Source: Enterobacteria phage FtMidnight
Strand: one strand, 5' to 3'
Sequence record: PP430152.1
DNA: 40,995 bases
Shown: positions 39,520 through 40,941 of the stretch, one piece after another
Layout of the letters: each line of letters begins with the position of its first letter
Numbering within the stretch: the stretch's first letter is position 1
Translations under genes and position numbers: made by a program
The notes under the pieces: model-generated
Databases searched by the model: none
What the model was told of the DNA's origin: nothing
The model's input: the letters and a program-made list of their open reading frames with translations, nothing else

Positions 39520-39801
39520 ATGGGCGATGATTTGAAATGGTTGGTTGGTGCAATAGTGACGCTAGTTACTATGATTGGTGGCGTTATTGCCCGTGACCGC
39601 CATGTAATGAACGCCATTAAAGAAGGTGACGAAAAGCTTTCAGACCGTTTGACGAAAGTTCAAGCGGAATATGTGCGCCGTGACGATTTGAACGGCCACA
39701 TTCAAAGCATGGAAAGTTCAATACAGCAAATGCGAGAAGAACAGCGCGAAACAAACCGCCGTATTGACAACCTTCTGACCGTTTTAAGTAAGAAGGATTG
39801 A
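39520..39801 (+). CDS. putative holin / antiholin-like membrane protein
   Basis: 93 aa; one N-terminal TM helix (LVGAIVTLVTMIGGVI) then a charged coiled-coil region; first gene of the lysis cassette. Confidence 0.4.
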   Translation: MGDDLKWLVGAIVTLVTMIGGVIARDRHVMNAIKEGDEKLSDRLTKVQAEYVRRDDLNGHIQSMESSIQQMREEQRETNRRIDNLLTVLSKKD

Positions 39802-39806
39802 AACAA

Positions 39807-40067
39807 ATGAAACTTATTGAAAATTGGCGCGAATGCTGGCGCTTTTGGTCAACCCGCCTTGCAATACTTGGCACTGCAATTGCAAGCGTTTTGCTTGCCT
39901 TCCCTGAAGCCGCCCTTTCCGTTTGGGCAATCATGCCCGTTGAATTTAAGAACGCAATTCCAGCGCAATACATGCCTTTTATTGGTATTGGTGTTTTTGC
40001 CCTTTCCATTGTTGCGCGTCTGATTAAACAAGAAGGTCTTGAAAATGCGAAACGTGAAGAATCTTGA
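39807..40067 (+). CDS. holin-like protein (two TM helices)
   Basis: 86 aa from ATG 39807 (RBS AGAAGGA); two hydrophobic segments and a charged C-terminus; immediately upstream of and overlapping the endolysin gene. Confidence 0.5.
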   Translation: MKLIENWRECWRFWSTRLAILGTAIASVLLAFPEAALSVWAIMPVEFKNAIPAQYMPFIGIGVFALSIVARLIKQEGLENAKREES

Positions 40068-40476
40068 AGAACAATTGCGCCTTGATGAAGGTGAAAAGTT
40101 GAGCGCGTACCAAGACCATCTTGGTTTTTGGACAATCGGAATTGGCCGCTTGATTGATGCCCGCAAAGGCGGCGGCATTACCGCTGAAGAAAGTTCATAC
40201 TTGTTCAACAATGACGTTAAGACAAAAACCGCTGAAGTGCGCCGGGCGCTTCCTTGGTTCGATAGCCTTGATGAAGCGCGGCAAGGCGTTCTGTTGAACA
40301 TGGCCTTTCAAATGGGTACGGCTGGCCTTCTTGGTTTCAAGAACACCTTGGCAATGGTCAAGGCCGGTGATTACAAAGGCGCGGCGGCTGGAATGCTGCA
40401 AAGCTTGTGGGCAACCCAAACCCCGCAACGTGCAAAGCGCCTTTCTGTTCAAATGGAAACAGGGCAATGGCAATGA
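40045..40476 (+). CDS. endolysin, T4-lysozyme-like (GH24 muramidase)
   Basis: 143 aa from ATG 40045 (RBS AGAAGG); LRLDEGEKLSAYQDHLGFWTIGIGRL matches the T4 lysozyme catalytic E/D/T region; C-terminal NMAFQMGTAGLLGF...TQTPQRAKR matches T4L MVFQMGETGVAGF...NQTPNRAKR. Confidence 0.85.
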   Translation: MRNVKNLEEQLRLDEGEKLSAYQDHLGFWTIGIGRLIDARKGGGITAEESSYLFNNDVKTKTAEVRRALPWFDSLDEARQGVLLNMAFQMGTAGLLGFKNTLAMVKAGDYKGAAAGMLQSLWATQTPQRAKRLSVQMETGQWQ

Positions 40477-40778
40477 TTACGGCACTATGGGCAAGGTTCG
40501 GCAAGTTCATTACAGGCATTGGTGCGGGTTTGCTGATGCTTGCAAGCGTGTTTTATGCGGGGCGGAAATCCGGCCAAAGTAAGGCCGAAATTAAAGCCGC
40601 TAACGAACGGGCAAAAGAACGTGAAGCTATTGCCGTTCGCCAAGTCAATGAAGCGCGTGAAGCGGTTGAACAGCAAACAAAGGCGGTGAAAAATGCAAGC
40701 GAAGTTATGGCGGATAATTCTATTCATCCTGATAGTGAAATTGTTGAGCGGTTGCGCGACGAATGGCAACGGGATTGA
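40467..40778 (+). CDS. i-spanin (Rz-like)
   Basis: 103 aa from ATG 40467, overlapping the endolysin stop; N-terminal TM helix then charged coiled coil; contains the embedded o-spanin start. Confidence 0.65.
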   Translation: MAMITALWARFGKFITGIGAGLLMLASVFYAGRKSGQSKAEIKAANERAKEREAIAVRQVNEAREAVEQQTKAVKNASEVMADNSIHPDSEIVERLRDEWQRD

Positions 40779-40941
40779 TTCAAGCATTGCTGACACCATT
40801 CAAAGCAAGCCGGTTGTTATTGACACGGCTTGCGATTGGGTAAAGCCCGTTTACATTTCAAAAGACGATTTGCTTACCGCTGGCACGGCGCGGCAAATTT
40901 TGAACCACAACGAAGCATGGCGGGCTAACTGTATTCAGTGA
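40693..40941 (+). CDS. o-spanin (Rz1-like outer-membrane lipoprotein)
   Basis: 82 aa from ATG 40693 (RBS GGTGA), starting in the +1 frame inside the i-spanin gene; signal peptide with lipobox LLSGC. Confidence 0.65.
   Translation: MQAKLWRIILFILIVKLLSGCATNGNGIDSSIADTIQSKPVVIDTACDWVKPVYISKDDLLTAGTARQILNHNEAWRANCIQ

Follow-up and report, generated by a model that had tools for sequence, protein, structure and literature searches.

Positions 39520-40941 of Enterobacteria phage FtMidnight (sequence record PP430152.1, analyzed here over its full length of 40,995 nucleotides [nt], the window) raise two questions: do they encode a complete lysis system, and what is the role of the small membrane protein at its head? 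A preliminary description of the locus, made from the sequence alone, had proposed a Gram-negative-type lysis cassette composed of a candidate antiholin, a holin, an endolysin, and a pair of overlapping spanins. We conclude that the locus is very probably the lysis module of a siphovirus related to phage 73, acting through the canonical three-step pathway of phages with diderm hosts. The cassette is correct as proposed and is ordinary, being another case of a five-gene cassette that has already been described and with a spanin family that has already been catalogued; for the product of the first open reading frame (ORF), which we refer to as ORF1, antiholin is one of several possible roles. 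The five genes are as follows (lengths in amino acids [aa]):

39520-39801, + strand: ORF1, 93 aa, one hydrophobic segment
39807-40067, + strand: holin gene with ATG start, 86 aa, two hydrophobic segments
40045-40476, + strand: GH24 endolysin gene with ATG start, 143 aa, no hydrophobic segment
40473-40778, + strand: Rz (i-spanin) gene, 101 aa, with an alternative in-frame ATG at 40467
40693-40941, + strand: Rz1 (o-spanin) gene, 82 aa, in the +1 frame relative to Rz

Both the ORF list and direct reading of the sequence place these five + strand genes where they were first described, nearly without spacers. Hydrophobic segments were identified by a Kyte-Doolittle (KD) scan using 19-residue windows and a mean KD threshold of 1.4, and the two consecutive membrane proteins of the preliminary description are recovered as hydropathy peaks in ORF1 (one) and the holin (two). 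The junctions, in gene order, are a 5-nt gap, a 23-nt out-of-frame overlap, a 4-nt ATGA overlap, and an 86-nt overlap, and a purine-rich Shine-Dalgarno sequence lies about 8 to 9 nt before every preferred start, with the form AAGAAGG(A) for the holin and endolysin genes. The five ORFs are not a product of chance, given the family matches for the holin, endolysin, Rz, and Rz1, the 54 close full-length homologues of ORF1 (92 to 107 aa), and the conserved frame of Rz1. Moreover, the order ORF1-holin-endolysin-Rz-Rz1-terS matches that annotated in phages SCUT-S3, Ab26, DoCa11, TehO, and KL1.

A two-helix holin and a soluble endolysin

The second gene product matches the Pfam family DUF7940 (PF25612; 81.0 bits against a cutoff of 27, E = 9.7e-23) and phrog_1356, which is annotated as 'holin' (E = 2.5e-26). 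Its hydropathy peaks lie at residues 18-36 and 55-73, the N terminus is basic (four Lys/Arg residues), the loop between the helices is short, and the C-terminal tail, RLIKQEGLENAKREES, is charged; the predicted arrangement fits a class II holin with an N-in/C-in topology. Two transmembrane domains have also been reported by TMHMM for the homologous holin of phage DLP1. Homologues are present in 164 phage records, from phages of Proteobacteria and a few cyanobacteria, and are typically annotated as holins with an endolysin gene adjoining, an adjacency seen in many of the 30 matches listed from these records. The FtMidnight holin gene likewise adjoins the endolysin gene, and the 23-nt overlap brings together different frames (coordinate modulo 3 of 0 for the holin and 1 for the endolysin). 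The family matches, the two helices, and the synteny all agree with the holin assignment made at the outset. A literature search on DUF7940 and PF25612 found no paper testing holin function.

The holin ribosome-binding site, AAGAAGGA, is 9 nt upstream of the ATG and within the 3' end of ORF1, and both the site and the ATG are conserved in relatives. We considered a dual-start arrangement producing a holin and an antiholin from the same gene (MKQM, compare MKSM of S21), but rejected it; a start at the upstream TTG (39798) would leave 0 nt between it and the ribosome-binding site, and Ab26 does not conserve the upstream start.

The third gene product matches PF00959 with 47.6 bits against a gathering score of 22.3 (E = 2.6e-12) and aligns with T4 lysozyme PDB chains at an E value of about 1e-28. 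Residues Glu15, Asp24, and Thr30 align with the T4 lysozyme catalytic residues Glu11, Asp20, and Thr26 (query residues 6-38 against T4 residues 2-34), and together with the exact 23-nt overlap these matches uphold the earlier proposal of a T4-lysozyme-like endolysin overlapping the holin gene out of frame. The closest relatives are in Xanthomonas phage XAJ2 (66%), Acinetobacter phage Alexa (63%), and Pseudomonas phage KP1 (57%), with a further relative in Pseudomonas phage Amjad_SA. No 19-residue window of the protein has a mean KD above 1.4, and the N terminus, MRNVKNLEEQLRLDEGE, is hydrophilic, with no signal peptide or signal-anchor-release (SAR) segment; therefore, the enzyme must depend on a holin that makes large holes.

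These features bear directly on whether the cassette could instead be a pinholin/SAR-endolysin system, in which the holin would not open large holes. The FtMidnight holin does have two helices, as does the phage 21 pinholin, and its first helix contains several Ala, Gly, Ser, and Thr residues. However, that helix is well hydrophobic (mean KD of 1.84), and the N termini of the endolysins are hydrophilic not only in FtMidnight but also in the corresponding slots of SCUT-S3 and KL1. We rejected the pinholin/SAR system on the basis of an endolysin that lacks a SAR segment, and regard it as highly improbable.

The endolysin gene also marks the place where FtMidnight departs from its relatives. DNA similarity to Septimatrevirus phages spans ORF1, the holin gene, Rz, and Rz1, but is interrupted across the endolysin gene, and thus falls into two pieces. 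Comparing 40045-40476 with the equivalent segments of SCUT-S3 (L001:547-1092) and KL1 (L014:514-1080) reveals a GH24 enzyme in FtMidnight, a 181-aa enzyme in SCUT-S3 and its relatives, and a GH108-like lysozyme in KL1, all within an otherwise conserved cassette. From its Cys/His pattern, we take the 181-aa Septimatrevirus enzyme to be TIGR02594/CHAP-like. Judged by sequence comparison, the endolysin slot is modular, with three unrelated enzymes in one slot; the breakpoints of the exchange lie near the 3' end of the holin gene and the Rz start.

An overlapped spanin pair

The fourth and fifth gene products both match families annotated as 'Rz-like spanin' (phrog_1026 for Rz, E = 4.6e-21; phrog_1275 for Rz1, E = 3.5e-24). 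Rz has a single N-terminal hydrophobic peak at residues 14-32 (numbered in the 103-aa form starting at 40467), with a net charge of +3 on the N-terminal flank, at least as high as that on the C-terminal flank. It has a predicted helical periplasmic domain, a conserved C-terminal LRDEW motif, and no cysteine. The start that we prefer for Rz is the ATG at 40473, because it fits both the homologues and the spacing of the ribosome-binding site; the resulting predicted gene of 306 nt fits an ATGA overlap with the endolysin stop.

In the +1 frame relative to Rz, Rz1 overlaps it over 86 nt and continues for 163 nt past the Rz stop. Its signal sequence, MQAKLWRIILFILIVKLLSG|CA, has a basic n-region, a lipobox of L-S-G-C21, and Ala at +2, giving a predicted mature outer-membrane lipoprotein of 62 aa with predicted periplasmic cysteines Cys47 and Cys80; weak matches to LysC (PF23793) and LPAM_1 were also found. 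Cys21, Pro52, and Cys80 are invariant across distant homologues, and the Rz1 frame is conserved in relatives; SCUT-S3, KL1, and more distant relatives all retain the ORF with its lipobox. Published LipoP predictions place signal peptidase II cleavage at 20|21 in the homologue from DLP1, where the KLLSG|C context is identical.

Comparison with SpaninDB (Kongari et al. 2018) places the pair within a well-populated class. The homologues from phage 73, Kakheti25, Ab26, and KL1 are classed there as overlapped, in the family 'KL1', and the Ab26 and Kakheti25 entries, with an i-spanin gene of 306 nt and an overlap of 86 nt, have a geometry identical to that of FtMidnight. Overlapped pairs are the commonest class in that study (228 of 528), and zero plus two periplasmic cysteines is the commonest combination, as is also observed for FtMidnight, where Rz has none and Rz1 has Cys47 and Cys80. 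The coordinates, the family matches, and the SpaninDB geometry thus concur in an overlapped Rz/Rz1 pair whose Rz1 gene runs beyond Rz in the +1 frame, as first described. The preliminary description had further taken the cassette to fix the host as diderm, and this is sustained by the family hidden Markov models, the membrane and lipobox features, and the hosts of the relatives, which are Proteobacteria or a few cyanobacteria.

We note that the Rz1 gene is uncalled in the metagenomic contig L004 (4259-4477), in DoCa11 (L002:3345-3599), and in TehO (L013:2609-2863). Missed o-spanin genes are a common annotation gap according to Kongari et al.

ORF1 belongs to a large family associated with lysis cassettes

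ORF1 has a hydrophobic peak at residues 5-23 and a membrane helix at approximately residues 7-24, preceded by an acidic N-terminal tail of about six residues and followed by an invariant RDR motif and a conserved helical domain of about 65 residues. The AlphaFold2 model is one long helix spanning residues 2-92 (predicted local distance difference test score of 87). A profile search recovered 705 cluster representatives (clustered at 50% identity) at E ≤ 1e-3, including 189 at E ≤ 1e-10; among the best 150 of the 705 representatives, nearly all are 85 to 135 aa, and the match takes in most of the protein. The family has no Pfam or NCBIfam model, with only coiled-coil noise in Pfam, and it is split across PHROGs 6664, 462, 12220, and others, all without an assigned function. 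A match to a known fold was sought by a PDB profile search and rejected, as only designed or generic coiled coils were recovered.

The strongest evidence on the role of ORF1 is its gene neighborhood. In about 10 independent contexts, members of the family are found within a lysis cassette or at its end, with endolysin, holin, and spanin genes alongside, and they are partnered with five endolysin types (GH24, CHAP-like, M15, Amidase_2, and GH108) and at least four holin families. In FtMidnight, SCUT-S3, Ab26, and DoCa11 the family provides the first gene of the cassette, and in other contexts it provides the last, where it is often ATGA-coupled to the Rz1 or holin gene. The latter arrangement is seen in a marine relative, a phage with P2-type tail genes, an Amidase_2 cassette, Paracoccus R3, Rhizobium N65, Ruegeria 45A6, Microcystis Mwe-JY13, and a myovirus-type prophage with the same DUF7940-GH24-Rz-Rz1 set. 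ORF1 lies two genes from the endolysin gene in FtMidnight, and its relatives are zero to four genes away in loci L005, L006, L009-L012, L018, and L019.

The first slot of the cassette is itself variable. The corresponding protein of Kakheti25, TehO, and KL1, which belongs to phrog_462 and is the commoner type, is a remote homologue of ORF1 (hhalign probability of 93%; 31% pairwise identity, E = 1e-8). In the TehO and SCUT-S3 pair, the holins are 99% identical and the slot-1 proteins only 31% identical (L013:1237-1491 against L001:1-282). The mosaic junction between these two phages is at the holin start codon.

This pattern of linkage argues against ORF1 being unrelated to lysis, for example a superinfection-exclusion or packaging membrane protein that happens to sit at the edge of the late operon. 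Such a reading draws on the position of ORF1 at a module boundary, with a terminator upstream and, in several relatives, terminase genes downstream, on the frequency of small single-helix proteins among phage morons, and on two contexts (L016 and L017) without a recognizable endolysin domain. Nonetheless, siphovirus, myovirus-type, and prophage backbones all keep the association with lysis genes, also where the flanking gene is an integrase, recombinase, or Gam gene instead of a terminase gene, and in several loci the family member has ATGA-type coupling to Rz1 or the holin gene. PADLOC gave no match for ORF1, and we rejected a defense or exclusion protein on that result. Overall, a role outside lysis seems rather unlikely.

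Possible role of ORF1 in lysis

The charge distribution around the membrane helix provides a second line of evidence. Across the ORF1 family, the net charge is -0.18 in the N-terminal tail and +1.67 over the 10 residues that follow the helix, and in 134 of the 147 members the side after the helix carries the higher net charge. Among the controls, lambda Rz, FtMidnight Rz, and SCUT-S3 Rz have the opposite sign, KL1 Rz is ambiguous, and Mu gp25 has the same sign as ORF1. Because of this bias relative to the i-spanin controls, ORF1 is predicted to be N-out/C-in, which would place its helical domain in the cytoplasm. A second i-spanin, prompted by a weak match to phrog_5151 (E = 0.037), was rejected, as the charge topology is the opposite and no context lacks a full Rz/Rz1 pair.

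Several characterized proteins with this architecture promote lysis. These are the Mu gp25 releasin, which has a single N-out/C-in helix (PMC9239132); Lcc6 of LambdaSo, a small single-helix protein with a cytoplasmic C-terminal tail (bioRxiv 10.1101/2024.01.23.576932); and mycobacteriophage LysF1b (Ms6 gp5), with one helix in the N-out/C-in orientation (PMC13056207). We asked how well the antiholin label of the preliminary description accommodates the data. A dedicated antiholin would bind the DUF7940 holin, either within the membrane or via the helical domain, and delay hole formation, and separate-gene antiholins are familiar from T4 (RI and RIII), P1 (LydB), and P2 (LysA). ORF1 is indeed a small membrane protein encoded immediately before the holin, with the holin ribosome-binding site in its 3' end, and its family is accessory and associated with lysis cassettes. 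Against this, ORF1 has no match to known antiholin families in Pfam, PHROG, or NCBIfam; the family is paired with at least four unrelated holin types; in most contexts its gene follows Rz1 rather than standing beside the holin gene; and the 31%-identical slot-1 allele beside a 99%-identical holin in Septimatrevirus argues against a tightly coevolved, holin-specific inhibitor. As the topological analogues are pro-lytic, slot 1 is exchanged, and there is no conserved dual start in the holin gene, we rate a pro-lytic cofactor as likelier than an antiholin; the former, an accessory lysis cassette protein acting at the holin step, is our tentative choice, whereas the latter we consider unlikely; the rest of the probability falls to a different role or to no part in lysis.

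A second alternative would make ORF1 a divergent but genuine releasin/DUF2730 protein that promotes endolysin release as Mu gp25 does. The proteins are similar in size (93 and 99 aa), both have a short acidic N-terminal tail, a single helix, a basic motif, and a helical domain that is cytoplasmic (by prediction in ORF1), and ORF1 is within five genes of the endolysin gene and, in several contexts, just before the terminase genes. There is also a collinear, weak profile alignment over the membrane helix and first cytoplasmic helix (E = 8.6e-4, probability of 24%), and Chamblee et al. (PMC9239132) noted DUF2730 types paired with non-SAR endolysins, although their role there was not established. 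However, the hhalign probabilities in single-sequence and profile-profile comparisons were 0.2%, 24%, and 9%, and there was no PF10805 match among the matches listed for 22 members at E ≤ 10 and 149 members at E ≤ 0.01. Furthermore, the FtMidnight endolysin has no SAR segment to be released, and, since it is soluble, a SAR-release mechanism is inapplicable; FtMidnight also differs from Mu in having a holin, and it is not a transposable phage. Homology to DUF2730/releasin was rejected on the hhalign and PF10805 results, and with the likelihood of a true releasin being quite low, we retain Mu gp25 as an architectural analogue only.

Returning to the pro-lytic cofactor, the breadth of the family raises the broader idea, also held tentatively, that it represents a large unnamed class of membrane-tethered cytoplasmic helical proteins, in which phages of diderm hosts would have a fifth, general class of lysis protein. 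Its members may act as holin-step factors alongside canonical holins and soluble endolysins, in a role like that of releasin, Lcc6, and LysF1b. If this is true, then the three-component model of holin, endolysin, and spanin is incomplete for many phages.

Genomic setting and expression

Other features flanking the cassette are as follows:

39432-39461, + strand: intrinsic terminator, with stem 39432-39451 (8 bp, GC-rich), a UUCG loop, and a U-tract
1-483, + strand: gene following the cassette, 160 aa, in the slot annotated as small terminase subunit in relatives
38810-39409, + strand: DUF7303/phrog_7597 gene, 199 aa, immediately before the terminator
38639-39412, - strand: 257-aa antisense ORF with TTG start, wholly opposite the DUF7303 gene
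38602-38790, + strand: 62-aa ORF with hydrophobic N terminus MKLMKKILACVGFIAALILFGIV, phrog_6168 (function not annotated)
38548-38576, before the 62-aa ORF: sigma-70-like match TTGACA-17-TATAGT, 11/12, the best of the region
40938-40966, + strand: sigma-70-like site GTGACA-17-TATAGT, 10/12, overlapping the Rz1 stop, in the 54-nt spacer before position 1

The window is a complete phage genome of about 41 kb and about 46% guanine plus cytosine (GC), opened at the ATG of its first gene, with about 71 to 75% identity over part of the genome to Septimatrevirus and Kilunavirus siphoviruses of Pseudomonas, Xanthomonas, Stenotrophomonas, and Burkholderia. In relatives, Rz1 is followed by the small terminase gene and then the large terminase gene, and in L004, where the ORF1 counterpart is 97% identical, Rz/Rz1 is followed by a gene of 160 aa; because the terminase genes directly follow the cassette in these genomes, the right end of the window, with the cassette, joins the gene at position 1.

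The terminator hairpin has a minimum free energy of -14.2 kcal/mol (z = -2.8) by terminator scan and folding; it ends the DUF7303 gene upstream and forms the left edge of the lysis/late unit. An equivalent hairpin is present upstream of the slot-1 gene in TehO, and no terminator of comparable quality was found within the cassette. From the position of the five genes between this terminator and the terminase genes, the lack of a comparable internal terminator, and the short gaps and overlaps, we infer that they are cotranscribed and that their translation is partly coupled. An Rfam scan of the region gave only subthreshold matches, driven by the terminator hairpin.

The DUF7303 gene stands before the lysis cassette in L004 and L006 too, as it apparently does in DoCa11 and TehO, and so is a conserved neighbor; a literature search on DUF7303 found nothing. 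The 257-aa ORF opposite it is most likely spurious. The antisense ORFs across the cassette region (92 to 172 aa) were likewise rejected as real genes for lack of meaningful family support, four having no PHROG match and one a weak match to a family of unknown function (E = 3.5e-4). The product of the 62-aa ORF may be a small membrane or secreted protein expressed from a host-type promoter, and the site at 40938-40966 may either drive the packaging genes as an internal promoter or match by chance.

Proposed lysis pathway and its implications

These observations suggest the following pathway. The two-helix holin, as its family and topology imply, would accumulate in the inner membrane and open large holes at a set time, through which the muramidase, whose catalytic triad is observed and whose activity is presumed from it, would pass to cut the peptidoglycan. 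Rz would be anchored in the inner membrane by its helix and Rz1 in the outer membrane by its lipid, and, once the wall has been cut, the Rz/Rz1 complex would remove the outer membrane by fusing both membranes, by analogy with lambda and P2. ORF1 would be a fifth, accessory component, tethered to the membrane and probably cytoplasmic, and our best guess is that it helps or times triggering at the holin step.

Some points weigh against parts of this pathway. The evidence is all computational, and the case for DUF7940 as a holin comes from its annotation and gene context. A promoter scan between the terminator and ORF1 gave no sigma-70-like match. The Rz1 lipobox has Lys at -5 from the Cys, which presumably breaks the PROSITE PS00013 pattern, and acceptance by LipoP is, as far as we are aware, a matter of the homologue only. 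For ORF1, the topology is predicted from charges alone, homology to releasin is undetectable in the hhalign (0.2 to 24%) and PF10805 comparisons, and the direction of its effect, speeding rather than delaying lysis, is a best guess.

The cassette itself matters little; it confirms that the FtMidnight genome is complete and that of a virulent-type siphovirus whose host is diderm, and it provides a clean annotation that includes an o-spanin of the kind usually missed by gene callers. It also displays module exchange at the resolution of gene boundaries, both in the three endolysins of one slot and in the divergent slot-1 alleles beside a nearly invariant holin. Finally, it points to a widespread uncharacterized family of lysis cassette proteins with an architecture like that of a few recently found 'extra' lysis factors, and these two by-products are of modest value.

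Comparison with known lysis systems

The closest counterparts are the cassettes of the Septimatrevirus phages (Pseudomonas phages 73, Kakheti25, Ab26, and SCUT-S3; Stenotrophomonas phages DLP1 and DLP2) and Kilunavirus KL1 of Burkholderia, which have the same five-gene order followed by terS and terL; this five-gene cassette has already been described in Kakheti25, DLP1/DLP2, and KL1. The SCUT-S3 holin, Rz, and Rz1 are 64%, 68%, and 65% identical to those of FtMidnight, and the Septimatrevirus cassettes share with it the 306-nt Rz gene, the 86-nt overlap, and the terminator upstream. The differences are in the endolysin, which is GH24 in FtMidnight but of other types in Septimatrevirus and KL1, and in the DNA identity, which is only about 71% over about 60% of the cassette. 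The ORF1 allele is of the SCUT-S3/Ab26/DoCa11 type, not the commoner Kakheti25 type. With a GC content of about 46%, well below the 53.6% of Septimatrevirus phage UF_RH5, FtMidnight probably infects a lower-GC diderm host.

Relative to T4 lysozyme (gpe, GH24), the FtMidnight endolysin has the catalytic Glu, Asp, and Thr aligned and the C-terminal lobe conserved, but it is shorter (143 aa compared with 164 aa) and lacks about 13 residues of the N-terminal lobe (approximately T4 residues 35-48). At the level of the whole module, the lambda S-R-Rz-Rz1 and P2 Y-K-lysA-lysB-lysC cassettes similarly combine a holin, a soluble muralytic enzyme, and a two-component spanin. Lambda also has its cassette at the head of the late genes beside the terminase genes; however, its holin belongs to another family and has three helices rather than two, FtMidnight has no dual-start antiholin, and the spanin genes are embedded in lambda and overlapped in FtMidnight, whose mature Rz1 has only two prolines. 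In their overlapped spanins, P2 LysB/LysC are more alike, and Rz1 has a weak match to the LysC family, whereas P2 LysA, with four membrane helices, is unlike the one-helix ORF1.

For ORF1 itself, the resemblances are of architecture. Mu gp25 shares with ORF1 a size of about 95 to 100 aa, a short acidic N-terminal tail in the periplasm, one helix, a basic motif, and a helical domain in the cytoplasm (locations that are predicted for ORF1), and both are encoded a few genes from the endolysin gene and paired with many endolysin types across phages; gp25 differs in having no significant sequence similarity to ORF1, and in that FtMidnight, which is not transposable, has a holin and a non-SAR endolysin. 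Lcc6 and LysF1a/LysF1b (Ms6 gp4/gp5), likened to ORF1 by architecture only, are small proteins that have a single helix and a C-terminal tail in the cytoplasm and are needed for efficient triggering at the holin level. Lcc6 differs in being encoded far from the cassette and in working with a pinholin, and LysF1b in its longer N-terminal tail (22 aa) and mycobacterial host. Within the Ms6 system, the pair formed by LysF1a (88 aa, two helices, N-in/C-in) and LysF1b (one helix, N-out/C-in) resembles the FtMidnight holin together with ORF1.

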